This document shows positions 21,588 to 62,929 of a stretch of 62,929 bases of DNA, piece by piece. The stretch is from assembly GCA_032718475.1 (NCBI GenBank), contig JAUCBJ010000772.1:1-62929 (forward strand), written 5' to 3'. Below the pieces are notes generated by a model that was not told the origin of the DNA, did not search any database, and saw only the letters and a list, made by a program, of their open reading frames with translations. Position 1 is the first letter of the stretch. Each line of letters opens with the position of its first letter. The DNA comes from Nemertoderma westbladi. Its lineage: Eukaryota > Animalia > Xenacoelomorpha. Both the position numbers and the translations under genes were made by a program.

Positions 21588-21838
21588 AATGACATATGTT
21601 TTAAAAATGAAGTTCGATACGGAACTCTAGCCTAATAAATTCAGTTCTTCTTTCATAATATTGTAAATTCAGGGTTGGAGTGGCATCACTGGCTACCATA
21701 ACATCAATAGTGATCGCAGATGGCTATTGATGGTGAAATCAACGATTAAATTATATACCGAAATGGTCACTCAAGGCCTACTAATGCTGCGAAATTGTTA
21801 ATGATTTGTAACTTATCAATTTTTCAACTTTATTAAAT

Positions 21839-30913: not shown

Positions 30914-31024
30914 GCCATGCTGCCTGTCGTTCAGGATGGCAAAGGGTAGGCGTTATGGTGGCTCCTGCCTTTATTAATTATTTCTTAATTTAATTATTTA
31001 ATAATTTCTTTACTTTGTTTTCAG

Positions 31025-36752: not shown

Positions 36753-38102
36753 AATTATTGAACTTTGTTAAAAGTAGGTATCTTTGTTTTGCAATACCCA
36801 TTAACCCTGTCGACACAATATTTATTAGCATCTGAGTCTTTTTATTACGTATATTGTGTAATGCATTTATTTATCCTATTTTTGGTGAAGTGGTTAAGTT
36901 CTCATTAAAATAGATGAACTATAATACATAATATAGTTTACAATTATTATATTATTATTATTAGTAATAATAATATTATCTAGAGAACCTGCATATTATA
37001 AATATGATGACTTTCAAATAAAAGGATTATGTATTATTGGTATTGCTGACTCATGTGTACATAATATATCATTACTTTACAACTAATACTACTATGTATG
37101 TAGCAGATTAGCCTAACCTATTAAACTCTCGTCAGTATTTGTTATATTTTTAGCAAATATTTTATATTCATATACTGTAGTAGGCCCTGCTAAATATTCC
37201 CCGTGTTATAATTTCTCCCGGTGGATGTATATTTTTTGACCAATTTATTAGATAAGTTTTGTTTATTGTGAAAAACATTTTTAACTTTCAAGTCGCTGAC
37301 TTTATTTGGTCTCTATTTATATATAAATAAAATTAACGAAAAACATAACGGCCAGGGTGTTATAGGCAAGGGGGTTAATACGACATTCTAGACTATTGCA
37401 CTTTATTTCTATTTTGGGTAATTTAGGCTTTTGGTTCAAACGTTTGAGAACACGAAAAGGTTAAAAGAGCCTTACAACGTTACCGAATTTAATTTATATT
37501 TCAAAAATATAAATTATAAGAAATGTTTTGTGTCGAACCTTGAAGTATAATATATATTACGGTGGCACTGTGCCGCCTTTATATAATAATTATAACTTAA
37601 ACCCCAGGGAGGCAGAGTGCCACCTTTACATATATTATCATTCGTGTTGAGCAGGACAAACTGGTCTAGAAAAGTTAATATTGATTAACTGATAAACCTT
37701 TATTAAGAAAATACCTCTGGTTATGGTATGAAAGAGCAAACTCAGTCCGTACCTATCGAAAAGTTGTTTTCTGAACTTTGTTAAAGACTAATGTTAAATA
37801 AAATTCTTGCGGGTGTTAATCAAATTAAGAACGTATCTGGTGATATGAAGGAGAAATAATGGACCGCTGGCTGTTGCACGATTAAGAATGCGAGATTAAT
37901 ATTAAATAAATATAAAGTGAATAATCCTGGAATAATTGTGTATTATATTAGGGTGTGGTTTATTTATTTAATCCATTCATGTCCCTTAATACAACAAGCA
38001 TTTTTAGCAAGTTGCCCCTCCCCTTAATATTTTCAAAATTTCAATCAATTTCTACGAAATTTGGTTTGAAGATAATCGACAATTTTTATTTACAACAAGC
38101 CG

Positions 38103-41100: not shown

Positions 41101-44100
41101 ATGCTGGCCGCGAGAAGAGGGAACTTCTTATAAATGCAATGCTGCTGGCCGCGAGAAGAGGGAACTTCTGATAAATGCAATGCTGCTGGCCGCGAGAAGA
41201 GGGAACTTCTTATAAATGCAATGCTGCTGGCCGCGAGAAGAGGGAACTTCTTATAAATGCAATGCTGCTGGCCGCGAGAAGAGGGAACTTCTGATAAATG
41301 CAATGCTGCTGGCCGCGAGAAGAGGGAACTTCTTATAAATGCAATGATGCTGGCCGCGAGAAGAGGGAACTTCTTATAAATGCAATGATGCTGGCCGCGA
41401 GAAGAGGGAACTTCTTATAAATGCAATGAGGCTGGCCGCGAGAAAAGGGAACTTCTTATAAATGCAATGATGCTGGCCGCGAGAAGAGGGAACTTCTTAT
41501 GAATGCAATGATGCTGGCCGCGAGAAGAGGGAACTTCATAAATGCAATGATGCTTGCCGCGAGAAGAGGGAACTTCTTATAAATGCAATGATGCTGGCCG
41601 CGAGAAGAGGGAACTTCTTATAAATGCAATGATGCTGGCCGCGAGAAGAGGGAACTTCATAAATGCAATGATGCTTGCCGCGAGAAGAGGGAACTTCTTA
41701 TAAATGCAATGATGCTGGCCGCGAGAAGAGGGAACTTCTTATAAATGCAATGATGCTGGCTGCGAGAAGAGGGAACTTCTTATAAATGCAATGATGCTTG
41801 CCGCGAGAAGAGGGAACTTCTTATAAATGCAATGCTGCTGTCCGCGAGAAGAGGGAACTTCTTATAAATGCAATGATGCTGGCCGCGAGAAGAGGGAACT
41901 TCTTATAAATGCAATGATGCTGGCCGCGAGAAGAGGGAACTTCTTATAAATGCAATGATGCTTGCCGCGAGAAGAGGGAACTTCTTATAAATGCAATGCT
42001 GCTGGCCGCGAGAAGAGGGAACTTCTTATAAATGCAATGCTGCTGGCCGCGAGAAGAGGGAACTTCTTATAAATGCAATGCTGCTGGCCGCGAGAAGAGG
42101 GAACTTCATAAATGCAATGATGCTTGCCGCGAGAAGAGGGAACTTCTTATAAATGCAATGATGCTGGCCGCGAGAAGAGGGAACTTCTTATAAATGCAAT
42201 GATGCTGGCCGCGAGAAGAGGGAACTTCTTATAAATGCAATGATGCTTGCCGCGAGAAGAGGGAACTTCTTATAAATGCAATGCTGCTGGCCGCGAGAAG
42301 AGGGAACTTCTTATAAATGCAATGCTGCTGGCCGCGAGAAGAGGGAACTTCTTATAAATGCAATGCTGCTGGCCGCGAGAAGAGGGAACTTCATAAATGC
42401 AATGATGCTTGCCGCGAGAAGAGGGAACTTCTTATAAATGCAATGATGCTGGCCGCGAGAAGAGGGAACTTCTTATAAATGCAATGATGCTGGCCGCGAG
42501 AAGAGGGAACTTCTTATAAATGCAATGATGCTTGCCGCGAGAAGAGGGAACTTCTTATAAATGCAATGCTGCTGGCCGCGAGAAGAGGGAACTTCTTATA
42601 AATGCAATGCTGCTGGCCGCGAGAAGAGGGAACTTCTTATAAATGCAATGCTGCTGGCCGCGAGAAGAGGGAACTTCTTATAAATGCAATGATGCTGGCC
42701 GCGAGAAGAGGGAACTTCTTATAAATGCAATGATGCTGGCCGCGAGAAGAGGGAACTTCTTATAAATGCAATGATGCTGGCCGCGAGAAGAGGGAACTTC
42801 TTATAAATGCAATGATGCTGGCCGCGAGAAGAGGGAACTTCTTATAAATGCAATGATGCTGGCCGCGAGAAGAGGGAACTTCTTATAAATGCAATGATGC
42901 TGGCCGCGAGAAGAGGGAACTTCTTATAAATGCAATGATGCTGGCCGCGAGAAGAGGGAACTTCTTATAAATGCAATGATGCTGGCCGCGAGAAGAGGGA
43001 ACTTCTTATAAATGCAATGATGCTGGCCGCGAGAAGAGGGAACTTCTTATAAATGCAATGATGCTGGCCGCGAGAAGAGGGAACTTCTTATAAATGCAAT
43101 GATGCTGGCCGCGAGAAGAGGGAACTTCTTATAAATGCAATGATGCTGGCCGCGAGAAGAGGGAACTTCTTATAAATGCAATGATGCTGGCCGCGAGAAG
43201 AGGGAACTTCTTATAAATGCAATGATGCTGGCCGCGAGAAGAGGGAACTTCTTATGAATGCAATGATGCTGGCCGCGAGAAGAGGGAACTTCTTATAAAT
43301 GCAATGATGCTGGCCGCGAGAAGAGGGAACTTCTTATAAATGCAATGATGCTGGCCGCGAGAAGAGGGAACTTCTTATAAATGCAATGATGCTGGCCGCG
43401 AGAAGAGGGAACTTCTTATAAATGCAATGATGCTGGCCGCGAGAAGAGGGAACTTCTTATAAATGCAATGATGCTGGCCGCGAGAAGAGGGAACTTCTTA
43501 TAAATGCAATGATGCTGGCCGCGAGAAGAGGGAACTTCTTATAAATGCAATGATGCTGGCCGCGAGAAGAGGGAACTTCTTATAAATGCAATGATGCTGG
43601 CCGCGAGAAGAGGGAACTTCTTATAAATGCAATGATGCTGGCCGCGAGAAGAGGGAACTTCTTATGAATGCAATGATGCTGGCCGCGAGAAGAGGGAACT
43701 TCTTATAAATGCAATGATGCTGGCCGCGAGAAGAGGGAACTTCTTATAAATGCAATGATGCTGGCCGCGAGAAGAGGGAACTTCTTATAAATGCAATGAT
43801 GCTGGCCGCGAGAAGAGGGAACTTCTTATAAATGCAATGATGCTGGCCGCGAGAAGAGGGAACTTCTTATAAATGCAATGATGCTGGCCGCGAGAAGAGG
43901 GAACTTCTTATAAATGCAATGATGCTGGCCGCGAGAAGAGGGAACTTCTTATAAATGCAATGATGCTGGCCGCGAGAAGAGGGAACTTCTTATAAATGCA
44001 ATGATGCTGGCCGCGAGAAGAGGGAACTTCTTATAAATGCAATGATGCTGGCCGCGAGAAGAGGGAACTTCTTATAAATGCAATGATGCTGGCCGCGAGA

Positions 44101-47100
44101 AGAGGGAACTTCTTATAAATGCAATGATGCTGGCCGCGAGAAGAGGGAACTTCTTATAAATGCAATGATGCTGGCCGCGAGAAGAGGGAACTTCTTATAA
44201 ATGCAATGATGCTGGCCGCGAGAAGAGGGAACTTCTTATAAATGCAATGATGCTGGCCGCGAGAAGAGGGAACTTCTTATAAATGCAATGATGCTGGCCG
44301 CGAGAAGAGGGAACTTCTTATAAATGCAATGATGCTGGCCGCGAGAAGAGGGAACTTCTTATAAATGCAATGATGCTGGCCGCGAGAAGAGGGAACTTCT
44401 TATAAATGCAATGATGCTGGCCGCGAGAAGAGGGAACTTCTTATAAATGCAATGATGCTGGCCGCGAGAAGAGGGAACTTCTTATAAATGCAATGATGCT
44501 GGCCGCGAGAAGAGGGAACTTCTTATAAATGCAATGATGCTGGCCGCGAGAAGAGGGAACTTCTTATAAATGCAATGATGCTGGCCGCGAGAAGAGGGAA
44601 CTTCTTATAAATGCAATGATGCTGGCCGCGAGAAGAGGGAACTTCTTATAAATGCAATGATGCTGGCCGCGAGAAGAGGGAACTTCTTATAAATGCAATG
44701 ATGCTGGCCGCGAGAAGAGGGAACTTCTTATAAATGCAATGATGCTGGCCGCGAGAAGAGGGAACTTCTTATAAATGCAATGATGCTGGCCGCGAGAAGA
44801 GGGAACTTCTTATAAATGCAATGATGCTGGCCGCGAGAAGAGGGAACTTCTTATAAATGCAATGATGCTGGCCGCGAGAAGAGGGAACTTCTTATAAATG
44901 CAATGATGCTGGCCGCGAGAAGAGGGAACTTCTTATAAATGCAATGATGCTGGCCGCGAGAAGAGGGAACTTCTTATAAATGCAATGATGCTGGCCGCGA
45001 GAAGAGGGAACTTCTTATAAATGCAATGATGCTGGCCGCGAGAAGAGGGAACTTCTTATAAATGCAATGATGCTGGCCGCGAGAAGAGGGAACTTCTTAT
45101 AAATGCAATGATGCTGGCCGCGAGAAGAGGGAACTTCTTATAAATGCAATGATGCTGGCCGCGAGAAGAGGGAACTTCTTATAAATGCAATGATGCTGGC
45201 CGCGAGAAGAGGGAACTTCTTATAAATGCAATGAGGCTGGCCGCGAGAAGAGGGAACTTCTTATAAATGCAATGATGCTGGCCGCGAGAAGAGGGAACTT
45301 CTTATAAATGCAATGATGCTGGCCGCGAGAAGAGGGAACTTCTTATAAATGCAATGATGCTGGCCGCGAGAAGAGGGAACTTCTTATAAATGCAATGATG
45401 CTGGCCGCGAGAAGAGGGAACTTCTTATAAATGCAATGATGCTGGCCGCGAGAAGAGGGAACTTCTTATAAATGCAATGATGCTGGCCGCGAGAAGAGGG
45501 AACTTCTTATAAATGCAATGATGCTGGCCGCGAGAAGAGGGAACTTCTTATAAATGCAATGATGCTGGCCGCGAGAAGAGGGAACTTCTTATAAATGCAA
45601 TGATGCTGGCTGCGAGAAGAGGGAACTTCTTATAAATGCAATGATGCTGGCCGCGAGAAGAGGGAACTTCTTATAAATGCAATGATGCTGGCCGCGAGAA
45701 GAGGGAACTTCTTATAAATGCAATGATGCTGGCCGCGAGAAGAGGGAACTTCTTATAAATGCAATGATGCTGGCCGCGAGAAGAGGGAACTTCTTATAAA
45801 TGCAATGATGCTGGCCGCGAGAAGAGGGAACTTCTTATGAATGCAATGATGCTGGCCGCGAGAAGAGGGAACTTCTTATAGAATGCAATGATGCTGGCCG
45901 CGAGAACAGGGAACTTCTTATGAATGCAATGATGCTGGCCGCGAGAAGAGGGAACTTCTTATAAATGCAATGATGCTGGCCGCGAGAAGAGGGAACTTCT
46001 TATAAATGCAATGATGCTGGCCGCGAGAAGAGGGAACTTCTTATAAATGCAATGATGCTGGCCGCGAGAAGAGGGAACTTCTTATAAATGCAATGATGCT
46101 GGCCGCGAGAAGAGGGAACTTCTTATAAATGCAATGATGCTGGCCGCGAGAAGAGGGAACTTCTTATAAATGCAATGATGCTGGCCGCGAGAAGAGGGAA
46201 CTTCTTATAAATGCAATGATGCTGGCCGCGAGAAGAGGGAACTTCTTATAAATGCAATGATGCTGGCCGCGAGAAGAGGGAACTTCTTATGAATGCAATG
46301 ATGCTGGCCGCGAGAAGAGGGAACTTCTTATAAATGCAATGATGCTGGCCGCGAGAAGAGGGAACTTCTTATGAATGCAATGATGCTGGCCGCGAGAAGA
46401 GGGAACTTCTTATAAATGCAATGATGCTGGCCGCGAGAAGAGGGAACTTCTTATAAATGCAATGATGCTGGCCGCGAGAAGAGGGAACTTCTTATAAATG
46501 CAATGATGCTGGCCGCGAGAAGAGGGAACTTCTTATAAATGCAATGATGCTGGCCGCGAGAAGAGGGAACTTCTTATAAATGCAATGATGCTGGCCGCGA
46601 GAAGAGGGAACTTCTTATAAATGCAATGATGCTGGCCGCGAGAAGAGGGAACTTCTTATAAATGCAATGATGCTGGCCGCGAGAAGAGGGAACTTCTTAT
46701 AAATGCAATGATGCTGGCCGCGAGAAGAGGGAACTTCTTATAAATGCAATGATGCTGGTCGCGAGAAGAGGGAACTTCTTATAAATGCAATGATGCTGGC
46801 TGCGAGAAGAGGGAACTTCTTATAAATGCAATGATGCTGGCCGCGAGAAGAGGGAACTTCTTATAAATGCAATGATGCTGGCCGCGAGAAGAGGGAACTT
46901 CTTATAAATGCAATGATGCTGGCCGCGAGAAGAGGGAACTTCTTATAAATGCAATGATGCTGGCCGCGAGAAGAGGGAACTTCTTATAAATGCAATGATG
47001 CTGGCCGCGAGAAGAGGGAACTTCTTATAAATGCAATGATGCTGGCCGCGAGAAGAGGGAACTTCTTATAAATGCAATGATGCTGGCCGCGAGAAGTGGG

Positions 47101-47683
47101 AACTTCTTATAAATGCAATGATGCTGGCCGCGAGAAGAGGGAACTTCTTATGAATGCAATGATGCTGGCCGCGAGAAGAGGGAACTTCTTATAAATGCAA
47201 TGATGCTGGCTGCGAGAAGAGGGAACTTCTTATAAATGCAATGATGCTGGCCGCGAGAAGAGAGAACTTCTTATAAATGCAATGATGCTGGTCGCGAGAA
47301 GAGGGAACTTCTTATAAATGCAATGATGCTGGCCGCGAGAAGAGGGAACTTCCTATAAATGCAATGAGGCTGGCCGCGAGAAAAGGGAACTTCTTATAAA
47401 TGCAATGATGCTGGCCGCGAGAAGAGGGAACTTCTTATAAATGTAATGATGCTGGCCGCGAGAAGAGGGAACTTCTTATGAATGCAATGATGCTGGCCGC
47501 GAGAAGAGGGAACTTCTTATAAATGCAATGATGCTGGCCGCGAGAAGAGGGAACTTCTTATAAATGCAATGATGCTGGCCGCGAGAAGAGGGAACTTCTT
47601 ATAAATGCAATGATGCTGGCCGCGAGAAGAGGGAACTTCTTATAAATACAATGATGCTGGCCGCGAGAAGAGGGAACTTCTTA
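38103..47683 (+). repeat. 41-bp satellite, ~234 copies (TTATAAATGCAATGATGCTGGCCGCGAGAAGAGGGAACTTC)
   Basis: Period measured directly (38103 to 38144). Highly homogeneous with clustered variants. Confidence 0.98.
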
Positions 47684-48510
47684 TGCCGGTAGATTTTTAG
47701 TTATTGGGCCTATAAGATGCAGAATTATTCAGAATTGAGATTTTAACAAAAAGAAACTGTGTTTCAATATCTATTATCTATTTCCAATAAAAGTTATAGC
47801 TATTTACGTGATTTACGTGAATTGGGTAATTCTTCTCAAAATAATTTTGTTTTTAAAAACGGGGAAAGATTAATAATATAATAGTAATTCTTACTATTGT
47901 TTAGTTTACTGAATTATCTTATACTTCCTGTAATTAGTTCTTTATACTTTATCAAAATTCAAAGGTATACATTTTAACACTTAAATCGATATGTTTTATG
48001 AATAATAAATATTGTCTTTATTTACCGAACTCATAATACGAATAATAGTGAAATACGATTGCTGACTGATGATGTGTTGGATAGCACTGTGTACGTACAG
48101 CAATATTAGCACACGGTACAAAAATTAAACTAACGTCAGCTGTTTTGGGCTTCTGCGAATAAAAGAGGTGAGTACAAAAAAAGACCACAAAGACCCAAGA
48201 CCCACTGTACAAAACAAAGGTAATGTCGCGTTAGATCCCAAAGAGCGTTAGGTCCCATTGCCATCTAAAGGAGCAGGTTAGTAAGGGAGCAGGTTACATA
48301 GGCGTTTTGTGGGAACCAAAACAATAAACGAAAGTTAACACATGTTACAAGATTATGCAGGTTACTTAATTGAGTTTTTTGTCTTTGTTTTGTACTCACC
48401 CGAATAAAAGCCAATGAATTAACGGTTAAAATCCATCATTTTTAAGAATAAAGATAGGAAAAAAGTTCAACATTATTTCTAATTCTTTTTTCATAATTCA
48501 TTATTTCCAA

Positions 48511-49075: not shown

Positions 49076-52000
49076 TCAATTCGTGGAAATATAATTGAGA
49101 ATGTCATCCAGTTCAGATCTATCAAAACCAGGAATATAAGTTTCTGCGCCACTAACTCTGCACTCAATTAATTCACGGCACATATTAATAACTGGTAAAT
49201 GTTCGTGGGAGGTAAACCAAGAAACGTTATTGCATAGTTTGGACGATAAATCATCAAAACGAACTTTACACTTATCAGCGATGTGTCTCAAATTAGAGCC
49301 ACTGACGGACCTACAATCAAATAGAGTAACATTACCAAGAAAACGAATAGATGGTTTATCAGAAGTTAATAACGACTTTGCAAAAGTTACAAAACGACTG
49401 CACAACATAGATAACGGATACGGAAAATCGATCAAACCCTCTACCAAAAATCTATGAGAATTATATGGAAGCCCCCAAACTAATCGCATATTAATATTCC
49501 AGCTAGTTACCATTTTACGGCAAGAATCCCCCCAAAGGTCCCAAAGGTTACTCCCATAAAAACTCGTTGTATAAATTCGCTGAATTTTTGATAAACTACT
49601 GTATATGGATGTGCAAACATGAATTCTTGCCTTAAACAATTCAACCTACCAATAAATATTCCCCTTTTACGTAAAATATCGCTACTGAACTTACAACCTG
49701 AATCAAATATGTTACCCAAATGCGTGGCCTCTTTAACCCATGGCAAATAAACAGAACGAATATAAACCTTAGCACCGGGTGGGTTCCAATTAAAACCAAA
49801 TGGGATACACTTCGACTTGCTTTTACTAGCATCTACATTTGTACTAAAGCACATATTAAATTCTTTAGCAAAATTATCACATGTCGAAATCATCTTTTGT
49901 AAACCAATAATAGATGGACACAAAAGAAAAATATCATCTGCATATACGAAAACACCAAGGTATCTAGAACCTAAATGACAACCAATCTTACTTTCTCTTA
50001 GCCGTACAATTAATTTATTTATCATAACACAAAACAAAATCGGGGAAGCCACCGAGCCTTGTTTAACGCCATTTGAAATACTAAAAGTAGTGGAGCAGGC
50101 AGAACCCCATCTAACAAAACCGCACTGACCTTTGTACATCGAAATTAGTGCACGCAGAAAAAGTGGCGAAAACCCCTTATCTAATAATTCTAAAAATAAT
50201 GATTGCCACTCGACCATATCAAATGCCTTCGTAAGGTCAAGCAGGCACCCAAACACAGGGGTAGAGAACCGCTGGTAAAAAGATATCGTTTCCTTGGCCG
50301 CCCAGCTGCACATTGAGGTACTAGAATTACGTAGGAAACCAAACTGTAATTCATCATTCTTAAATACATTATCCTGGGAAAGCAACATTACCCATTCAAA
50401 CACCTTAACAATCAAAGAAGAAATAGCTATAGCACGGTAATTAGTAGATGACGTATGGCTACCTAATTTATTCTTAATAAGTGGAATTAAAGCAAATTTC
50501 AATAATAGCAATGGGACATAACCATGTAAAAGGAAAGAATTGAACAATTGAGCTAAATGCATGGCTAAATCGTCATTAGCATTTTTTAAACAATCGGAAT
50601 TAAATTCAGTATCAACATCAGACTTGGCAGACTTGAGTTTGCCAATGGCTGCAGAAACTAACTGAGGAGAGATAGTATCATGTTCTTGTAACGAATAATC
50701 TAATAAAATATCCTTAATTTTACCATCTAATAAAGGTATATCAGACTCATAACCTTGATTATATAAATTACTATAAATTGCACCGAAATGATTAGCGATA
50801 GAAATATCGTCAGTCTTGCCATCAACCGACGTACTACAACCCTAAATACAATTACCTCGCAATCTCATTATCTCTGAAAATAAATCCACGCTACTATTAG
50901 ACAAACATGACTGTAATAATTTATCTTTATTCACAATATCAGCTTGACGCTTAAGTCTACGTACGGCATACTGATATTGCGCTCTGGACGACCGCCGCAT
51001 ATGGTATAGATTGCTCGCACTTGCACTTGGTCTACCTGCAGACACCCACAGGCTGTGCCAAAATATTGCGTCATCTATGTACGGACGCACATGCTCGTTC
51101 CAACCAGGTAAAGTGTGACGCTTATTACCGTCATTAGAAATACCCCCAGTTTGGGGCAATACCCCTGCGGCATCATTCAGAGCACTCAAGATATCACTAG
51201 TATACTCATCAATATTATTAATATGCGCAGGATTATCACACAGTAAATTATTACAAGTACTACAATGCAATGATATTGAACTTAATCGCTCATTTAAATT
51301 AGATTTAAATAAAGATTTCTCATCATCATTCGCCCGTAAAAAATTTGGTTTGGACGGTATGTTTCTAGATACTGCTGATTCAGTCAAACCTTCAACCAAA
51401 AATTTAAAATAAATAGGGTTATGGTCAGGCAGGATGGCACCTGAGTGAACCACTCCCGCCTCAATGCCTGCATTAAGCACTGAGTCTGAAATCAAAAAAT
51501 GATCAATAGTGGAAGTATATACTGTACCATTAATCACACAAATATGCGTAAAATCAACATTGTAAGTATCCCATGCAATATTTAGATTAAAATCACGAAT
51601 AAATTTTTGCAAATAATTGACATGAGCTGATTGACGCAAAAAATCAGAATTAAGATCTCCAGCTATAATTACATTGTTCGAAGAAGAGGCACTTACAATG
51701 CGATTGATATCATTGCACAATAATAAAAATTCGTCAGAAACTATATCTGAATGCCTGGTATCGACTGGGAAATACGTATTTAGTAAAATAATTTCCCTTG
51801 AATTGGGAAATAATAATTTTAAAGCCAATAAACGTCTATTATCTGTGGTAACCGATACCACATACTTCAAAAGTGATTTACGCACTAAAAAACATAACCC
51901 AGCCATTTGCCTTCCATGCTGTCCAGCAACATTCGAATCTGAAAAATAAGAAGGTTCAAAATAGCACTCAAAATCGGGAAAATGTTTCTTTATGTAATTT

Positions 52001-52176
52001 ACATTATTTTTAAGAATAAAATGTTCCTGAATGCAAATTATATCAGCACTACAGGCTAATATTTTTATAAACTCACTTCTATCAGAAGAAAACCCCCTGC
52101 TGTTATAGGAGTAAATTCTAAAATTGTAACCATTGTTTTGAGAGTTACTGGCCATATTAAAGTATAAAAAATACAA
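49076..52176 (-). pseudogene. LINE ORF2 (AP endonuclease + reverse transcriptase), disrupted
   Basis: APE motifs YNSRG, IQEH, GDLNS, TIDHF and DHNP; RT motifs LDLTKAFD, GVKQG, SPILF and YADD. One in-frame TAG at 50842-50844 and one frameshift near 49590-49605. Confidence 0.9.
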
Positions 52177-52209
52177 ATCTATATATATATATATACACGT
52201 AGCTATTGC

Positions 52210-53508
52210 TTAAGCCCTCCGGCCCCCGCCATCCCCTCCGCTCCTAGCATAATATACCCATTTACGAACACAAGCCCCCGGGGGCCATACCAAGGGATCA
52301 AGCGCCATTTCAAGGAGGTTACTGGGAATTCCAACCTTAAAACTAGCACTCCTAGACTCTTTATTAGAGATCCTCGAAACAAAGCTAAGCGGAATCTTTA
52401 TATTGCTGGCTCCCAAGTCGTCTACAATGTCCTGTGGTGTTGTCTCACTATCCATTCTAAACACAAAAATCTCAGCAGGAGCAACTTTCGACTTAAATGT
52501 TTTACCAGACATCCCCTTATCGTCGGGCTTTCTTCCTAAGCCTACGATGTACTCAGGACGAGACCTTCGGTATTTCGGGAACTGGTAGCCCTCAGAATCG
52601 GTACGCGACCGTGAATTAACAGTTCCAGTTTCTGTAGCCGGGATCGATGGCGAAAAACGAGGTCGCTTAGCACTCCCTGGCTGACTCCCAGGCTCAGCTC
52701 CAGGCTGTCTACCGGCAGCCTCGGAGCTATTAACGCCAACCACTGCCGGAGTGGTAGGGAACCGCGATTGAGAAACGGAGGTGCTATAGGGATGCCCTGA
52801 GTTCCGAGCAAATCTCGGTGACGAACGTCTAGAGGTTACTACCTCCCTGAAGGTGCGAGAAGTATCTGGCGGAATAAAGCCAACTGGGGGAGGAGGTAGC
52901 TGCGACGGAACGGAAGACGCAACGGCCCCTCCTACTCCTGTAGCCTTAGCAGAAACATGTGACTCTATAGACTTGAGTTTGTCGATTACAGATTTCTGAA
53001 AGTCATCTATTTTCTTATCAACGGAACTGATTCTCTCAGAAATATCAACATCAGCAATCTTACAGTTAAACAGTGATGTTCTATCCCCTGACTTACCGGA
53101 ACTGGAGGATAGAGTCCCAACCGCAGGCAACCTGAGGGCCGCCAGGGCCTCAACGGTAATCAACGGTAGTTTACCCGCTTTATCCAGCTCATGAAGCTTC
53201 TCCAACAAATCACGTACATTCGCCATTGCGGCAGTACGGTCTTTCGTGTCCTTCCGATTCACACACTCTAGACTAGCGCGCCGACAGAGTTGTTGCTTCG
53301 CAATGTAGATTTCATCCGCCGGGAAGTTTGACAGACAAACTTCAGATGCGACATCATCAGTATGACAGGAGATACACTGCAACAATGAGGCAAGGCATGT
53401 ATTGACAAGGCAAGTACTGTCAGAAAGGATAACAGCATCTATACCGGCCGCGGCCGTACTGCCGTACCGGTACCGGGAGCGTAAAAGGTACCAGAAGTAT
53501 CCATGCAA
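52210..53508 (-). CDS. LINE ORF1 (nucleic-acid-binding protein)
   Basis: Lies upstream of ORF2. Coiled-coil-like segment, low-complexity linker and C-terminal IFVFRM...SFKVGI...WPPG..VRKW RRM-like block typical of LINE ORF1s. The start codon is uncertain. Confidence 0.8.
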   Translation of the reverse strand: MHGYFWYLLRSRYRYGSTAAAGIDAVILSDSTCLVNTCLASLLQCISCHTDDVASEVCLSNFPADEIYIAKQQLCRRASLECVNRKDTKDRTAAMANVRDLLEKLHELDKAGKLPLITVEALAALRLPAVGTLSSSSGKSGDRTSLFNCKIADVDISERISSVDKKIDDFQKSVIDKLKSIESHVSAKATGVGGAVASSVPSQLPPPPVGFIPPDTSRTFREVVTSRRSSPRFARNSGHPYSTSVSQSRFPTTPAVVGVNSSEAAGRQPGAEPGSQPGSAKRPRFSPSIPATETGTVNSRSRTDSEGYQFPKYRRSRPEYIVGLGRKPDDKGMSGKTFKSKVAPAEIFVFRMDSETTPQDIVDDLGASNIKIPLSFVSRISNKESRSASFKVGIPSNLLEMALDPLVWPPGACVRKWVYYARSGGDGGGRRA

Positions 53509-54002
53509 CTACCATCCGGAGTCCAGCCATCGCCTACCTCACCCGGTTGCGAGGAAGAAGGGACGTTTCCACCAAAACCCAAAGGGTCGACAGGTCTAAG
53601 GTCGGCAGGGGCCGAACTAAAAGAATCCATAAAAGAGACAGTACAGCAGTATGAGATAAAGTCAGTCAGTTGGTCTATCAGTTTCAGTAGTTAGCAGTCA
53701 GCAGTCAGCGTGAGTTGTGCAGCCAACCAACAATTAACAACAATTAACTAACGGACATTCAGTTAATAACTGTTCCACCCACAGAAACTCATACAATTTG
53801 TAATAATAAGTCATTTGTGTTATAAGTCATAAGTTATTTGTGGAATAACGGTTTTTAGATATGTTGGGATTGTTTCAGTCAATTTCTGAGTTTTCATTTT
53901 CATAACTGAAGGGAATTCGGTTTCAACGAAACATAGAAACATGTTATTCATAAATTAAACCACCACCGTCCCAATGTTACTACTCTATGCCATTGAGAAA
54001 GT

Positions 54003-54323
54003 TTAGAAGTAAATCACCGCCCGAACAAGTAGAACAGCAACACAAACGACTTGCACCTTGGGACCAATGATTTTATGTGACCGGTCTGTGGTGGTGGTCT
54101 CCGTCGCTACAACTGTTGTCGTTTTCCTTGTCACGTCATAATCCCATACAACTTCAGGACAAGATTCCGTACCATTGCAACATGAAAATTGACATGACTC
54201 GCTTTCCAGAGTTAAAAAGTTTTTTAACCATTCTACAACCATTTGCATGTATTTAAGGAGAATAGGTGGATCTTCCTTCTGAATCTGCATGTTTGCGCTT
54301 TTGAAGACCTTTGACAGTTTAAC
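54003..54323 (-). CDS. Probable terminal exon of a host cell-surface (possibly GPI-anchored) protein gene
   Basis: Acceptor TTCTAATTTTGGCAG| in phase 0. Peptide VKLSKVFKSANMQ...CQFSCCNGTESC, a Thr-rich stalk, and a hydrophobic C-terminus VVCVAVLLVRAVIYF before the stop. Upstream exons not identified. Confidence 0.45.
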   Translation of the reverse strand, partial: VKLSKVFKSANMQIQKEDPPILLKYMQMVVEWLKNFLTLESESCQFSCCNGTESCPEVVWDYDVTRKTTTVVATETTTTDRSHKIIGPKVQVVCVAVLLVRAVIYF

Positions 54324-55058
54324 CTGCCAAAATTAGAATGTCTTTTAGATGATATATATTCTTTAGCTTTATGACGAGTATTTGATACACTACATTAGCC
54401 GAAGCCAGTCTATGCGCAATCATTCACCCGTTGGATATACCCGGGAGACTGAGTTCGGAGCTTAATGATTGATGGTGCAAGCCTACTGTATTATTCGACT
54501 GATCGTAATATATAATCTCTGACAAATATTATTCACTTTCGGGAAATATTAACAGTTCCTTTAGGACGTGGCGCTCTAAATATGTAAACAGAGTTATGAC
54601 TTAAACTAGACACAACGAAAAGGCTATAGATTAACGTATATGGCGCATTCTTTAGGAGATGCTTTGTTATCAGTTACAATCATACACAATGCTGCACAAT
54701 ACTGCACACTAATCTGCCGACCTTCACTAAATTTGGTCACGTATAAAGAGAGCAACATACAATTTATGTCGGGCATATGAAATAGCATTAGATTCACTTC
54801 AAACCACTCAACATAGGTCGCAATCGTTTATCTGTAACCGGTCTCTCTAACCTTTAGTATATCAAGAAGGTGGGGTGTCTGACTATTGATCAGTATTCCA
54901 AATATAATCTTCCATCAACAAATATAATGAATAACCGACAGCAAAAGCAGTAATGTAAGATATGAATTGCATAGATATGTATGATAAGATTGCTCGTTTG
55001 TGTAAATCGTTTGGTTAGGTTAGATAACAGATATACGTTCTATAATTAAGCCTACTAA

Positions 55059-55479
55059 TGTAAAGCTAAAGAATGCTGATATACGGAGGTGCCAAAAGCC
55101 GATGTTCTTAGGCTCTGGGCAAAAACATAACACTGAACTACTGAGTTCTGTATACACCTCCAACACAGAGACAAAAAACGCTCTGATTGGTCAACCGAAC
55201 AACGAGAGAACAAAGAAACAAAGAAATGTCGACGTGGCAATATCAGCTGTTAGCCGTCGTCATGGTAGCGACACTGTTTTCAAGAGTATCTAGCTTATCG
55301 CGTCACGAGATTGCGGATTATGTCCTCTAAAGTACAAATACAGTACAAATACAGAAGAAATGACTTTTATGTCCTCTAAAACACCAGTACAGCAAGGACA
55401 CGGCCTTTTTATGCCTGGCAAACCAACTACAGAGTACTTTAAGGGAAAATAACCGGTTAATGACGCAAAAGCTTTTACA
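55059..55479 (-). repeat. 3' LTR (421 bp) of the BEL/Pao element
   Basis: The minus strand starts TGTAAAAGCT and ends AGCTTTACA (TG...CA with terminal inverted repeat). It is immediately preceded by PPT-like GGGAGCGG (55480-55487). The partner LTR is outside the window. Confidence 0.7.
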
Positions 55480-55557
55480 CCGCTCCCAGAAAATGGGATT
55501 TAAGTCTATAAAATATAACAAATCACAGTTTCTAAAATATAAAAATACTCTAAACAG

Positions 55558-58500
55558 TTAGTCTTTCTTACGCGGACGGCGTTTACGCAGTTTTTTGAGG
55601 CTAGTAAGAGTCCTTTTCTCTTTGGGGCGAGCCACTTTACTAGGAGGGCTGTAACTCCGGGGTGAAGGGTGCAATACAATTGCATCAGAAGGTTTCGGAT
55701 TGCGATCAGTATATCCGCCGGTCGAGGTACCTGGTTGATCGATATCAACTTCCGTGGAGCGAGGTCTAACAGCCTTTAGGGCGCGCCTCAGGACAGCGGG
55801 TCCTTGACGGGTTGTCTGGGCAATGGCGGTAGGCGGACCGTGGGTGGTAAGAAACTTCCTTGGTTTAATAGTTCTTTCCAGCTCGCGTTCTCGGGCTCGA
55901 TATTCGTAGGGCCGTCGAGATACTTCCTGCAACTAAGGGTGCGAGTTGATAAATAAGTCGCCATACTCAGGGTCTTGACGGATATAATTGATCAAATGGT
56001 ATGAAGTAATATCGTTAGGATTGACGTTCCTAAGGTATCTTCTAACAAATTTAGTGGAAATACACTCACCAACACGCTTCATTAGCTCGTAACTCGGTAC
56101 GCGTGTTTTTTGTTCCACAGACGCTAATAAATAAGGATGGAACGCGTAAACTCCCTCGTAAGAGCGTCCAGGGTAGTATCGATGACGGGACTCACAGTGT
56201 AAATCCGCGTTAGCTTCCCAAGCTCGGATGTAGCACAGGGTAATCATTTCATCTACGCTCTCTAAATCGTGATTAAAGGGGCAATTATAACTCGCATGTC
56301 CTTTAAATTGACAGTGGTGGCATTGAGTCATAAATTGGGGGCAGACTGCAAAAATATGAGAGTTATTAAGTCTGCAATACGCACAATATATCTCCATCAT
56401 TGGTTGTTCGTGGAAATAGGAACAGGGTACGTCTGAGTCCATAGGGGTGAAATGGTCTCTCGATGCGCATAATCGACAACGTTTTCGAGAAACATAGTTA
56501 GCGTGTCGATAATCGTATGCGGTGAGACATTGTGGACCTTGATACCACTCTAAGACGTAGTCGTTATCGCTGCTCCGGGGCGCTGTAGGCTGAATCGCTT
56601 CAGCTTCTAAGCATATTGGTTCGTCTTCCAATTGCATAGCTGAAGTAGGTGCGGCTGTCTCCGCAAGCGGACCCACTGTCTGAACTTCGACGACAGAATA
56701 ACCCGTAGGTATTCGGGGTCTTTGTATAACAGATGAGTGCAAGTTCTGTATACAAACGTCCTGAAAAAGGGCAAATCCCGCGCTGTTTAGCTTCTCCGCC
56801 GCTGAGTCTCTCAGGCTGAGTTTGGTCAGAGCGCGGTCCTTGAACTGACTATCAACGTTACGGAACGGAGTCAGAAAGCGCCTGAAACATTCAAAGCGGA
56901 TGAATTTATTGTGTTCATCTAACTTGGCGAGTTTGGTTCCAAGTATTAAGGGATGGGCGCGTATGGTACGACTGCACACATCGGCTAGCCAACCGGCAAG
57001 TGCTGCGTTTTCAAAGATCGTGTATATAGCTAAGGAGGGACGAAGTGGAACACTCATAAAGCTATACACGGCGCCAGGTGCGGTCAATGGTCCATCAAAG
57101 TATAAACGAGAATAATGATCTCCGTATACTTGTTGGTAATTTATAGGATTTCCAACCTTGAAATTCCATCCGTATTCTTGAAAGGCAAGATGTCCGATGG
57201 AGGTTCGTTGTACTTTGGTAATTCCGCTGGGTGTATTGGCATACGTAGTGCGGAAGAAACCTCGGCCTTCTGCCCAAGGAGCAATCAGCTGAGTATCAAC
57301 GAAGGGGTATGGAATGTTCTCCATATTCCGAAAGTCGTTCTGTAGGTCTCCATAAACAGCTGAGCCGATTTTAAGGATTCCTTCGTTAAACAGCATCTCG
57401 AGCACGGGTTGGGGTAACATCGATCCATCGATACCCATGGCCGGCTTGCGCTCGGTGTCGGTGACGTAACGCTGCGCGAGTTCAAATTGTCCATGTCGGA
57501 GTTTCTTTTGTATCTCAGTAAGAGTTTCAAAAGAATAATCAATAACGTCGGAACACGCTCGAGTAAATACGTGGGTAGAACCAGCGAGTCCTCGTATATG
57601 TATCATCCGCGTAGTTCCAAGTTCTCCAACCGGAACGCTACCTTCGTTATCGTAAGTGACAACTCCATACATCTCGATAACGTTAAGAGTTTCGTTCCAC
57701 TCTTTAGTGGCGTTTTCGAGTGTCATTCCCACAGGATGCCACAAGGTAGCACATTCGCTAGCATTAGGCAGGTCTTTATACTTTAAACATTGTGTGGTAT
57801 ATGTTTCCACATCTCCATATCGTTGTATTCTTTCCTCCTCGAATAACACATCAAGATTCCAGTGCACTAAACGAGTTTTGATGAATCCATCAAGATTATA
57901 CGGAGGTATTGTTTCTTTCTCTATTCTGGAAACATTATATGGTTTTCGAAACGAGTTTACTTTAACTAATTGATCCAGATGTTTCTGCAGTTGTTCGAGT
58001 TCGACAAGATCGAGAGGATTTATTAACGGTAGAAACTTCAGACTATGTGTAGGATCTTCCGGTTTTACCATGTAATATTGTTTTAGATTGACGTAATAAG
58101 GGTGATCTTTGATCCCATAAAACGAGTCCGGTAAAGGTCTAGCGCGTATGTTTACATCGTGTACCATGCGACGGACAAGATCTGCTCTATTGTCCGGAGG
58201 TTCAACGAGTATACCATCGACACGGGCGGGTTCGATGGGCGGACGCTGCAACAGAGGAGCATCGGCGATAAGATCGCGAGATCTTAGGTTGATATCAACC
58301 GGTTGGGGTTGTGCCGTCGCAAAAAGTTTGTCTCCGAAATGGGGAACCATCGAGGGATGAAGAATGGTTTTAGAGTAGAGATCCGTCATAAGGATTTGCG
58401 CTTCGGGTTGAGCTAAAGCCGCTTCTTCTCTCTCATCCAGTTCTATATGTCTCTCCTCGAGCTGATTCTCCTCTGCTTGTTGTTGTAGACGCTCATCTAG

Positions 58501-59790
58501 AAACTCTTGTAAAGAGTAGGTTCGTCCACGTTCGATGTCCTCCTCGAGATTTTGTATTTCTCTATCGAACTGGGGTAAAGCTAATTCCTTCACCGCTTGG
58601 ACTTGTTGCTGCAATTTACGCTTCTCCAAACAATCGTACGTTCCCTTTCCGATTTTCTGCCGAATAGCGTCTAATGCGTTTCGTACGACGCTCGGAACGG
58701 GTTGGATAGAGGTGAAGCCGGGACGGTTGTATGGGTTAAACGGCGATATTAGATGACCACGTCCCAATCCAGCTAGGTAGGGTTGGCGAATGTCTCGTGA
58801 GCCTACTACCGGAGTGCCACCGATCAACTGTTCGGGTAACACTAGATCTTTGAACAGTGAGTACAGTTCGGGAGGATCCGTGATACTATTAGGGTCAAGA
58901 GTTTGAGGTCTAACTGAGGAATGCAGAGGTCTGACCGAGTATTCCGGAACTCTGATCATCGGTTTGTTCAAGGATCGCTTGAGTCGAGCGACCGCAGGGG
59001 ACACGTCGAACAGGTTTCGCTCGAAACTCCCGTAAGTATATCGTGTAAAACTGTGTTTAGCGCAACGTCTCCGCGGATGTTTATGTCTTTCCGTTTGCTG
59101 ATTGGGTCTAGGGCATTCGTCACAGTAATACCAAAGACGCATGTCCTGCAGAGGAAACGCGGGTGATCGTTCTCCAGTTTTACAATATTCCTCCATCTGT
59201 TCGAAGCTATCTGGGACAACAGGTAGCGGTCGATCGGCGGTAAGATACATCATAGTGAAATAGAGTCGTTTGAGTTCTAACATAGGATCATGATGTATAC
59301 CTTGAGGATATCGAGTTTCGAGATTTTGTTGACTGGCAATATTGAGGTATGTTTCTCTCAAGAATTCCAGATAATCGTTGAAGTCGTTGCGTTTATCCGG
59401 TTCTTCAACGTCTTCTCTTTCGAGTCAGTTTCGAATAGAGTTCTCGTGTTCTATTCTTGGCTTATCGTTCCGATTCCGTTGGGTATGATATTTAAATAAA
59501 ACCATTTCCCTTTCGGTATCCACATCGTCCGTATCGTGTAAATCGATAGGGTGGCCGGTAGTTAAGAAGTCCATATACGTACCATTACGATGCGTATAGC
59601 GAGCGGTGAACTTTCTATAGTCCAATTCACGCGTAAGTTGCTCCGGGGACATTGGCGGTTCGATATAACGACCATCATCCTCCGTAGTAGTTGGACCAGC
59701 GTCGCCACGTATCAAGCTATCGACAAACGCTTGTAAAGGTAGAGTATATCGCTCCCTGATACCAAGATCATCTTCTATCAACTCAGTCAT
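55558..59790 (-). CDS. Accessory ORF: DEDDy-like 3'-5' exonuclease + CCHC-type zinc fingers + basic tail (~1410 codons, two in-frame stops)
   Basis: Track ORFs 59425-59790, 55933-59361 and 55558-55932 share one frame, separated only by TGA (59425-59427) and TAG (55933-55935). Exonuclease-like motifs: VVTYDNEG, LPQPVLEMLFNEGILKIGSAVYGD, FVDTQL, SIGHLA, PLRPSLAIYTIFE. Fingers: CRLCASRDH..C, CAYCRLNNSHIFAVC, CHHCQFKGHASYNC. Confidence 0.7.
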
Positions 59791-59872
59791 ATCTGCTATG
59801 AGTTTATCAATATTATAATGAGTTTATATATATTAGGCTAGCGGGCGTCGCTGCCTACCCCTCTTTTGCCCC

Positions 59873-59980
59873 CGGACAGTGTAAGATCCTCAGCGCCGAT
59901 GTACCGTCGTCGCTGTGCTTTCGCCAACGATGTAGCTACACAACGACAACGATAACCGGCACAAGTCACTTAACTGTCCG
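59873..59980 (-). other. Long stem-loop ~80 nt upstream of the accessory ORF start
   Basis: 59873-59880 pairs with 59973-59980, 59895-59898 with 59957-59960, and 59902-59917 with 59939-59954 (16 bp, with three pairs that form only as G-U on the minus strand). Confidence 0.65.
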
Positions 59981-60611
59981 TCCCAAAGGCTTAGATGTAC
60001 TGCAGGTTCTTCTTGGAGAGTTAGGGTTACTTTCACAATTGCGACTCGCTACTGTAAACACACCTTAGTAGTAACATTCACCTACAAACGCACAAATTCA
60101 ACACAACTGCAACAAACTGCACACATTCGGGCCATTTGTCCGTTAGTCAGTGCCTTCCAGAATGTCACTGTATTTATTATGTATCCTTGGATACTAGCAG
60201 TGCGCTATTTATTCCCTATGCTATTCAATGGGGCATGCTTTCTATTGTTCTTTTAACTCACTTCTAATTCTAGCGTGGTTGTTGCCATGGTGACATTATG
60301 GAAAGCTAGCGGTAGAATTAGGGTAATTCTCATGCATACAGATCTGGGATGCTATTTAATAATAATTCTTTAATGGTCAATATCCCCTTTATACATGATT
60401 CTATGAATTTTATCGGCTATTGACTATACATTGGAGATTCTCGCACACAAATACACTTAATAGAGTGAATCTCCGCTCCCATGATCTATTAATTAATGGA
60501 ATTTTGGGAATGTTATAAATTGTACAAAATGACAATTTATTAAATTCATTGAAATATATGAATTTAAATTTATTCCCGTAAATTTTATTATTTAATGTTA
60601 AATAGACACAA

Positions 60612-60878
60612 TTTTATTCCAGAACATGTCTGGGGACTGGGATCCTTGATTCTAGGAATTTTGTCATTTTAAGAGTATCGGTAAGTGCTACGATATCTTA
60701 ATCGACTAGAATTTTAAAGGATCTGATATTTGACAGATTTTTGTAAATATTAATAATTAATATTTAGGATGAGCACCAGTTTATTCCAGAACTTGTCTGG
60801 GGACGTTAACCATTGATTCTAGAAATTTGTCTTTCAAGTATATCGGTGGGTGCCGCGATATCTTAATCGACTAGAATT
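60612..60878. repeat. Two diverged ~100-bp direct repeats with conserved internal hairpins
   Basis: 60612-60713 and 60780-60878 share TTATTCCAGAAC.TGTCTGGGGAC...TTGATTCTAG...TATCGGT..GTGC..CGATATCTTAATCGACTAGAATT. Confidence 0.75.
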
Positions 60879-61432
60879 ACAGATGGTCAAAGGGTTTAAC
60901 AGATTTATTTTGCGTTATACGCTACTGTTAAAGGGACATCACGCTACTATATGTATTATTTAATATACGGTATGAGAGCAATATCGCACGAAGCAATGTC
61001 AGTGTGAAGAGGCAAGTCGTTTCCAAGGTCTACCCAGAGCTTGGTTTAGCCGAGACACGAGGATCTGAACTTTGCATTCCTAATACTCTGCCTACCAATA
61101 ATACTTGAATATAGTAGTGGCTTTATTGTACTTTAATAAGTACGGATATTTCATCTTACTGTAGTCACGTATTTATAATATGATACGGACAGTAAGGAAA
61201 GAGAAAAAGAATTATTTCTTGCCGTCGCACTAAATATATAATATACGTAATTAAATAATAAACGCGAATATATATTGCACTAATCTACTAAATGATCACT
61301 AAAATAACATGTTACTAAATAAAATTAAATAAAACGATTAAAATAAAATTACATAATAATACATACATAAATATAAAAATAAAACAAATACAAATATAAA
61401 GTAATATGGTCACACACCCACTCCAGCCGTTG

Positions 61433-62929
61433 CTAAGTTGGGGAGTCCCTAGATGTTTGTTGGATTAGGGAGGTGGTCGTGGGAAGAGTATCTTGTCTCC
61501 CATAGTTTCCGGAGAGTTCTCTGTCTCTTTCCAGTAAACATAAACGTCCCACCGGGCGATTGAGCTGCTGCGTCTCGAAGACAATTCCCGGTTTCTTGAA
61601 GTTACGTCGCATGACGATGAGTTCTACCGATCGCACCAAACCGTCATCCGAGATGTGAGTCTCGATTATACGACCTGTCTGCCACCTCTTACGTGGAAGA
61701 TCTACATCCACAATAAGAACCATGTCTCCAGCGCTGACGTTTTCTTGCTGCGCAAACCACTTAGTTCGAAGTTGTAGCGTGGGCAGATAATGTTTTTCGA
61801 AATGGTCAGCGAAGCGACGGGATAACAACTGCATGAGTTGCCAAGTTTGTCGGCAGTATTCGTCTCCGTCTGTGATTTCCGATTGTGGGAGCATGGCTAC
61901 AGGTTTCTTCAGTAGGAAGTGCGCGGGTGTTAGCGCTTCCAGGGAATCGGGACTCGATGAGACTGGCATAAGCGGTCTCTCGTTGAGATAGGCGGCGATT
62001 TCTTCCATTAACGTCCGCAAAAGTTCGTCGGTGAGATAAGCGCGACAAGGCACTATAAAATGAAATGCTGTCTTCACGCTTCTTATTAATCTCTCCCAAC
62101 TTCCTCCCCACCAAGGGGCGTCGGCGGCGTTGAAGGTCCAACTAGACGCTGTTACTCGTAGTTGGTCGTCCACCTGTCTTTGGTTCCAATCTTTGACGTA
62201 AGCTTTGATTTCATTGTTGGCACCAATGAAGTTTGTTCCCTTATCAGATCTCATCGTGTTACTAGTGCCAAAGCGAGCGATCTGTCGTCGTAAGCTTAAT
62301 AGAAAGCTGTTGGTAGATAAATCGTTCACCATATCGAGATGGATGGCTCTACAAGTCATACAAACAAAGATTACACACCATCTCTTGACTATAGTCCTAG
62401 CACGATATACTTCAATAGGGCCAAATAAATCCACACCGGCATTAGTAAAGGGTGGTTCATAAAAGCTTACTCGTTCCCTAGGTAATTCTGCCTCTCTCTG
62501 TGTTAAAGGCCTACTGAATGCTTTCCTACAGGGTATACAGTTCCTAAGAACTTGGTTCAGAGCTCTACGGGGTTTATAAAAATAATAGCGAGTTCGAATT
62601 TCGCTAAGAACTCGTTCTCTACCAGCATGATAAAGTTTGCTGTGAACATCTACAATCATCTTGACTTGTATTTCAAGATTTCTAATGAGTATGGGGAACT
62701 TAGTATCAAAGGATAATGGGGCATTCGTTAACCTTCCTCCAACACGTATCAACCCATCTATCATTGTGCTAGAGAAACGATCCCTTAAGCGCATCTGTGG
62801 ATTTCTCAACAACAGGAAATACTTATCGGAATCTTCATAGCATTGTAAGAGTCTCAGCATCTGTTTGTTGGTTTCTTCATGCTCCTGATAACTGATCTTC
62901 TCCTTCAGAAACCTGTCGGGTATCTTATA
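61433..62929 (-). CDS. pol: BEL/Pao pol polyprotein, C-terminal part (integrase), 5'-incomplete
   Basis: VGGRL, HHCC (HSKLYH...CIPC), DDE triad (GVDLFGP, SDKGTNF, GGSWERLI) and Pao-type tail YLPTLQLRTKW...GDMVL...WQTGRI...DGLVRSV. The frame is open to the window edge. Confidence 0.95.
   Translation of the reverse strand, partial: YKIPDRFLKEKISYQEHEETNKQMLRLLQCYEDSDKYFLLLRNPQMRLRDRFSSTMIDGLIRVGGRLTNAPLSFDTKFPILIRNLEIQVKMIVDVHSKLYHAGRERVLSEIRTRYYFYKPRRALNQVLRNCIPCRKAFSRPLTQREAELPRERVSFYEPPFTNAGVDLFGPIEVYRARTIVKRWCVIFVCMTCRAIHLDMVNDLSTNSFLLSLRRQIARFGTSNTMRSDKGTNFIGANNEIKAYVKDWNQRQVDDQLRVTASSWTFNAADAPWWGGSWERLIRSVKTAFHFIVPCRAYLTDELLRTLMEEIAAYLNERPLMPVSSSPDSLEALTPAHFLLKKPVAMLPQSEITDGDEYCRQTWQLMQLLSRRFADHFEKHYLPTLQLRTKWFAQQENVSAGDMVLIVDVDLPRKRWQTGRIIETHISDDGLVRSVELIVMRRNFKKPGIVFETQQLNRPVGRLCLLERDRELSGNYGRQDTLPTTTSLIQQTSRDSPT

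Follow-up and report, generated by a model that had tools for sequence, protein, structure and literature searches.

The stretch of DNA analysed here (the window) comprises positions 1 to 62,929 of contig JAUCBJ010000772.1 of Nemertoderma westbladi (Xenacoelomorpha; assembly GCA_032718475.1). The right-hand part of the window holds, on the minus strand, 8.64 kb of a BEL/Pao retrotransposon in which the 3′ part of pol is followed by an AT-rich spacer, by a large extra gene in the env position, and by a short purine tract and a long terminal repeat (LTR). The extra gene encodes a predicted RNase D-like domain and three zinc knuckles. Because it is repeated together with pol and the LTR and shows an excess of synonymous changes, we regard it as a maintained accessory gene with a sign of purifying selection.

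The pol frame (61433–62929, minus strand) continues beyond the window. The 498 codons inside it cover the end of the RNase H region, an H2C2 finger, the integrase core and DUF5641 (Pfam E values of 1.3e-7 for Integrase_H2C2 and 4.6e-20 for DUF5641), which bears out the statement of an earlier note on this DNA that a Pao integrase ends here, with its stop at 61433. A search with the integrase returned 879 proteins at E <= 1e-20. Among the 120 best homologues listed, which are 34–42% identical, DUF5641 is present in 120/120 and PF05380 in 119/120, and many of the listed relatives with a full-length pol reach about 2000 amino acids. With the integrase last and a Pao-type C-terminal domain, the element is assigned on sequence to BEL/Pao (Belpaoviridae). 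Assuming a typical gag-pol of 2000 residues, we estimate its whole length at about 14–15 kb. An alternative genetic code was set aside, since pol stops at a TAG codon and table 1 gives normal translations for the other long open reading frames (ORFs) of the window.

Between pol and the extra gene lies a spacer of 1.64 kb (59791–61432, minus strand; GC 35%). It contains a pair of direct repeats of 138 bp (60578–60713 and 60743–60878; 80% alike), and a TATA-like run and an AG stand immediately 5′ of the ATG of the extra gene; these features could be an internal promoter or a splice acceptor.

The extra gene occupies a frame of 1410 codons 3′ of the integrase (59790–55558, minus strand), which two in-frame stops divide into pieces of 121, 1163 and 124 codons. 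The first piece (59425–59790) starts with the ATG at 59790 and ends with TGA at 59427–59425; the main piece (55933–59424), the product of which we call P0001, ends with TAG at 55935–55933; the last piece (55558–55932) is rich in lysine and arginine. At the local base composition, the probability that 1163 codons follow one another without a stop by chance is about 2e-27. The earlier note had described a single open ORF of about 1410 codons on the pol strand: its strand and extent stand, while the two stops had been overlooked. It had also seen an R/K-rich tail, which is present (26% K+R), and had excluded env for want of a transmembrane segment. The hydropathy scan agrees with this exclusion: no hydrophobic segment was found in any piece (maximum Kyte–Doolittle mean over 19 residues of 1.19), so that env was rejected, and a Pfam scan of the gene matched no glycoprotein family. 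No family was matched by the N-terminal 570 residues of P0001. Stops private to this copy would mean a dead copy, and stops shared with other copies would mean read-through or separate genes; unless the two stops are read through, this copy is likely to be dead.

The RNase D-like domain and the zinc knuckles

An RNase D-like (DEDDy-type) domain is predicted at residues 571–825 of P0001 (56950–57714, minus strand) by profile tests and by alignment of the catalytic columns. In the joint alignment, the catalytic residues of P0001 are D592 (57651–57649), E594 (57645–57643), D693 (57348–57346), Y801 (57024–57022) and E805 (57012–57010). The motif series given in the earlier note (D at 57649–57651 and E at 57643–57645, then VYGD, FVDTQL, SIGHL and YTIFE) was found complete and in that order.

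A HMMER search of 1.84 billion representative sequences returned a single homologue of P0001, the unnamed 648-amino-acid protein P0002 from a public metagenome assembly (E 1.5e-6), and no close host homologue. P0002 matches P0001 from ExoII to ExoIII (30% identity over 150 residues) and again over the knuckles. The two proteins share, in the same order, a D-E-D-Y-E exonuclease-like domain, a linker, three knuckles, an aromatic stretch and a basic end, but P0002 is without the long N-terminal part of P0001. In the Atlas of protein features, P0002 lies nearest to PF01612 clusters (0.86), which we take as a lead only; the first-placed of these clusters joins the exonuclease domain to CCHC knuckles and consists of cellular proteins, mostly from Euglenozoa. 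A first homologue search (2831 candidates) had found none. No related loci were found in viral, metagenome or prokaryote contigs, some of the queries having come from an alignment with a misplaced ExoI, and plasmids, PHROGs and the PDB gave nothing useful (RNase D, PDB entry 1yt3, appeared at E 1.4, with ExoI misplaced in the query alignment).

As references we used 69 bacterial PF01612 domains in three groups (RNase D, n = 25; a short group, n = 30; a third group, n = 14). The five catalytic columns read D-E-D-Y-D in 69/69 references and D-E-D-Y-E in P0001 and P0002; the D-x-E of ExoI and the D of ExoII (D592, E594 and D693) sit in columns that are invariant across all 69. That both proteins have Glu as the fourth acidic residue suggests a trait of the family rather than decay. 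When 528 targets, including 400 shuffles and two reversals, were scored with a profile of the 25 RNase D sequences, P0001 came first (15.4 bits) and P0002 second (7.5 bits), compared with 2.5 bits for the best of the 400 shuffles. The other bacterial PF01612 groups scored lower, with no signal for the 30-sequence short group and a weak one for the 14-sequence group. Alignment to RNase D by hhalign gave probabilities of 90–94% and scores of 46–48, where two sets of 100 column shuffles peaked at 24 and 20. Among the 18,950 families of NCBIfam, the domain matched RNase D best, with two models at E 0.014 and 0.036.

The profile tests with their controls, together with a homologue of the same domain order, thus support a DnaQ-fold domain of RNase D type, and we consider the fold itself very probable. 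RNase D appears to be the closest of the three bacterial groups compared. The earlier assignment to the DEDDy exonucleases of the RNase D/WRN/Mut-7/EXD1 group is upheld by the profile tests as far as the RNase D type is concerned; it is not upheld at ExoIII, where Asp is replaced by Glu, and no structure confirms it. We lean slightly towards catalytic activity despite the Glu at the fourth acidic position; no literature was found on the Klenow D501E change. No HRDC domain was detected by Pfam, and the PF01612 score of P0002 (11.9 bits) lies below the curated Pfam cut-off of 23.6 bits.

The domain is followed by three Cys/His zinc knuckles (56281–56478, minus strand; residues 983–1001, 1014–1028 and 1035–1048 of P0001), in agreement with the CCHC-type fingers noted earlier at about 56480–56280; the first of them is atypical (CX2CX3HX10C). 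The match of P0001 to Pfam zf-CCHC_3 (E 0.0013) is below the curated cut-off, and the knuckles of P0002 match retroviral nucleocapsids (E 1e-4). A further Cys/His cluster (CX2C...H..H...C..H; 59124–59040, minus strand) lies near the start of P0001 and is possibly a fourth zinc site.

Boundaries, copies and selection

A short purine tract, GGGAGCGG (55480–55487, minus strand), stands directly before the LTR, and the two begin 70 bases after the end of the extra-gene frame. The LTR starts with TGT at 55479 and most likely ends with ACA at 54290, which makes it 1190 bp long (54290–55479, minus strand). Its length, its TG...CA ends and the purine tract agree with the description of Belpaoviridae (elements of 4.2–10 kb with LTRs of 0.2–1.2 kb, TG...CA ends and a purine tract of about 10 nt; PMC8742986).

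Contigs of four sequencing runs from four studies, the best-matching of which may derive from the source of the window itself, were compared with positions 54000–62929 of the window in 30 bins. Contig depth rises from 25 to more than 100,000 at 54288–54333, the sequence ahead of 54290 is foreign in two contigs of another run, and one contig departs from the window after 54289. Across 55059, a divergent copy keeps identical flanking letters, and another copy extends 18 letters past this point, fewer than the 31 needed for a bridge. An LTR end at 55059 was rejected on the depth ending at 54290, the foreign flanks there and the continuity across 55059, and keeps a minor chance of being correct; the inverted repeat at 55059, TGTAAAGCT, is a better match to the start of the LTR than the one at 54290, which counts against an end at 54290. 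From the earlier proposal of a purine tract followed by an LTR at 55479–55059, we therefore keep the tract (55487–55480) and the TGT start, and the end is probably wrong. The flank ACTAA (55054–55058) is probably wrong as a target site as well; if the LTR ends at 54290, the expected target-site duplication is CTGCA (54285–54289, plus strand), the second copy of which would lie beyond the window. One contig departs from the repeat at 55479, as fits a 5′ LTR elsewhere, and a hypervariable stretch lies inside the LTR near 54945–55022. An LTR starting right after pol was also rejected, with no junction among the loose ends listed and no second LTR-like copy inside the window.

In a frame just outside the LTR (54003–54332, minus strand), a stretch rich in cysteine is joined by a Thr-rich linker to a hydrophobic end; it resembles the tail of a host protein that is small and either secreted or glycosylphosphatidylinositol-anchored. 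This frame is cut by the LTR end at 54290, and one run has a contig without the insertion at this place.

From pol through the spacer and the extra gene to the LTR, 30/30 bins are repeat-covered in all four runs, and the flank up to 54289 is found in single contigs at depths of 17–25. Within the gene, single contigs reach depths of 5101 and 7329 in the run with a flank depth of 17. Depth, as distinct from a measured copy number, suggests hundreds of copies of the element. The loose ends at 59799 and 60212 in the spacer are indel variants, not junctions (among 24 of 1988 loose ends listed). We infer the linkage of pol and the extra gene from the overlapping cover and from the position of the purine tract and the LTR behind the frame; the extra gene very probably belongs to the Pao element, the 5′ LTR of which lies outside the window.

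The copies differ by up to 15–20%. The counts that follow come from 40 of 2374 variants and 12 of 201 indels, as chosen by the tool, and are indicative. Of the 40 listed variants, 26 lie in the extra-gene frame. Seventeen of these 26 are synonymous, where random placement of the same changes would give 8.1 (p 3.5e-4). All of the listed variants in pol (6/6) and in the first piece of the extra gene (3/3) are synonymous, the latter arguing that the part ahead of the first stop, too, is under constraint in this frame. The 12 listed indels all lie outside the extra-gene frame and pol, and the gaps over the extra-gene frame add up to a multiple of three (zero included) in 18 of the 22 listed pieces.

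Taken as a whole, the window resembles animal DNA and contains intronless genes, a satellite and remnants of LINEs. By eye, an uninterrupted, intronless frame of 1915 codons (31005–36752, plus strand) has the look of an ABCA-type transporter with two ATPase domains, and an intronless frame of 376 codons (21812–22942, minus strand) resembles the catalytic subunit of cAMP-dependent protein kinase. The kinase gene is flanked on both sides by reverse-transcriptase fragments (14376–15530 and 23217–24371) that are 99% identical and inverted. A LINE with ORF1, endonuclease and reverse transcriptase (49076–53508, minus strand) has an in-frame stop at 50842–50844 and a frame change near 49600. There are also a 41-bp satellite of about 10 kb with a strong GC skew (about 37944–48000) and an array of short repeats (about 3155–8969), the translation of which gives ARLGS/EPSRA runs.

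Possible roles and known systems

The best explanation overall, which we hold tentatively and at less than even odds, is that the extra gene encodes an accessory protein of the Pao element in which an RNase D-like domain and knuckles would together blunt host small-RNA silencing. The protein would probably be expressed from its own or a spliced transcript starting in the 1.6-kb spacer; its three knuckles would bind RNA, and its RNase D-like domain would trim or shield RNA 3′ ends. That the target would be host small RNAs or their precursors, rather than the RNA of the element itself, comes close to an even call, and the outcome would then be blunted host silencing. The piRNA and RNAi factors EXD1, Maelstrom and Mut-7, which excerpts of PMC5408684 describe as DEDD-fold proteins, were counted in favour of a small-RNA role.

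Several observations weigh against this explanation. This copy has two in-frame stops. The Y-x3-D of ExoIII is broken: Y801 is present, but residue 805 is Glu in P0001 and P0002 and Asp in 69/69 references. The ExoII stretch carries most of the statistical signal, ExoI and ExoIII being weak alone (0/40 and 1/40 shuffles reach their scores), and Pfam found no exonuclease match in P0001. The earlier note had suggested a comparison by profile and by structure; the first succeeded with hhalign, whereas AlphaFold2 reached a pLDDT of only 30.5 (residues 516–875 alone) or 30.1 (two-sequence alignment with ExoI misplaced), and a fold search with this model, too poor for a meaningful search, found nothing. 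No contig joining pol to the extra gene was found among the four runs. Joints at 55692–58441 and 56628–59421, each seen in two runs, reveal copies with 2.7-kb deletions inside the gene; many copies have thus spread without the domain, and they may form non-autonomous subfamilies. The variant counts are a small, tool-chosen selection. Finally, excerpts of PMC5408684 report neither a clear link to copy number nor a departure from neutrality for the DEDDy ORF3s of rotifer elements.

We may wonder whether the protein instead serves the element's own cycle by processing or packaging its RNA, a view to which we give a limited chance, close behind that of the preferred explanation. The knuckles would then bind genomic RNA like a nucleocapsid, and the domain would trim or protect a 3′ end, either that of the element's RNA or that of its tRNA primer. 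RNase D is the best-matching group, and the knuckles of P0002 match those of retroviral nucleocapsids. RNase D trims structured RNAs such as tRNA, which was also counted in support. A role of this kind in the element's own cycle is the first proposed for the rotifer DEDDy ORF3s in the excerpted text of PMC5408684; yet gag and pol, in some cases with env, suffice for most BEL/Pao elements (PMC3118150, in excerpt; PMC8742986), and deleted derivatives without the domain exist, though complementation in trans is conceivable. It is unlikely that the gene comes from another repeat nested in or beside the Pao element, or that its domain is not DnaQ-fold. The location of the 5′ LTR outside the window, the lack of a contig joining pol to the gene, a purine-rich run and TGT after the pol stop near 61415, the lack of a confirming structure and the fact that P0002 is known without genomic context would fit such an origin or fold; the continuous cover without a junction among the loose ends listed, the finding of a single LTR-like copy within the window, the position of the purine tract and of the LTR close behind the frame, and five catalytic columns that align in both proteins do not.

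Proofreading of reverse transcription, which would permit an unusually long element (about 14–15 kb) as nidovirus ExoN does, seems improbable. DnaQ-fold enzymes do include proofreaders, and the window holds 8.64 kb with only 498 codons of pol, many full relatives of which have about 2000 amino acids, compared with a family range of 4.2–10 kb (PMC8742986). However, the gene is separate from pol, it makes up most of the extra length itself, and the copies are up to 15–20% apart. We consider it very improbable that a captured host gene is carried as a functionless passenger and is now decaying: the two stops here, the internal deletions elsewhere and the existence of cellular proteins joining PF01612 to CCHC knuckles (the mostly euglenozoan Atlas cluster) would be compatible with this, but synonymous excess and frame-keeping gaps persist among copies this divergent, and no close host homologue exists among the 1.84 billion representatives.

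Our preferred explanation, a Pao accessory protein that blunts small-RNA silencing, has a bolder form, which we find doubtful: a BEL/Pao lineage of 14–15 kb would encode an active D-E-D-E exoribonuclease with knuckles, would use it to destroy or trim host piRNAs, and would share with another animal lineage (P0002) the separate family to which this enzyme belongs. If this were true and the stops were shared by active copies, programmed read-through would dose the domains. As read here, the gene extends to BEL/Pao an exonuclease cargo in the env position that is known, with no selection detected, from rotifer gypsy-type and Penelope-like elements. To this the BEL/Pao case adds a different catalytic change, putative RNA-binding knuckles and a sign of purifying selection, in a family that is very abundant. 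With its defined domain, it allows a test of the proposal that enzymes directed against small-RNA silencing are carried by animal retrotransposons.

Our literature search found no report of a BEL/Pao exonuclease, a provisional result in that Repbase and GyDB were not covered; the earlier note likewise knew of no BEL/Pao case with this architecture. An extra exonuclease domain may reportedly be mentioned in work of 2000 by Malik, Henikoff and Eickbush or in related work on the nematode Cer elements of the BEL class. Env is the only third gene named in the ICTV profile (PMC8742986) and in the excerpts used of the BEL/Pao survey (PMC3118150), in the main text of which ‘exonuclease’ occurs 0 times. 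Excerpts of Rodriguez et al. (2017; PMC5408684) describe an RNase D-like DEDDy ORF3 with a DEED motif in the rotifer LTR elements Juno and Vesta and in Athena/Terminon, and those of the reviews PMC6431247 and PMC5718144 repeat the finding. The extra DEDDy ORFs named in the earlier note for gypsy elements of bdelloid rotifers are thus published; the Cer1 precedent named with them was not found, ‘exonuclease’ occurring 0 times in the term-searched text of two Cer1 papers. Excerpts of PMC11662393 and PMC9094657 contain nothing on an exonuclease. Provisionally, what is new is the BEL/Pao carrier, the D-E-D-E type and the attached knuckles, the exonuclease cargo in the env position being already known from rotifers.

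The element shares with the env-bearing belpaovirids (Tas, Cer13 and Atlas; PMC8742986 and, in excerpt, PMC9094657) a Pao-type integrase, a short purine tract, a TG...CA LTR of at most 1.2 kb and a third coding region behind pol; in contrast to theirs, its third gene is not an envelope gene, and its estimated length of 14–15 kb exceeds the family range of 4.2–10 kb. As in the enzymes of PF01612 (RNase D, Rrp6, WRN, EXD1 and Mut-7), the domain has the D-x-E of ExoI, the D of ExoII, the DTQ of RNase D and the Y of ExoIII, in the same order and columns. It differs from these enzymes by Glu for the Asp of ExoIII, by insertions of about 30 residues that follow ExoI and precede ExoIII, and by scores far below the curated cut-offs. 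The rotifer DEDDy ORF3s, compared here by their published description rather than by their sequences, resemble the extra gene in being RNase D-like genes 3′ of pol, in the env position, without a transmembrane segment and with a D-to-E catalytic change. Yet the carrier is BEL/Pao rather than gypsy-type, and the changed acid is the fourth (D-E-D-E), whereas the rotifer motif is written DEED in the excerpted text; moreover, in the frame of 1410 codons described here, about 690 unmatched codons precede the domain, which is followed by three CCHC knuckles and then by a basic tail.

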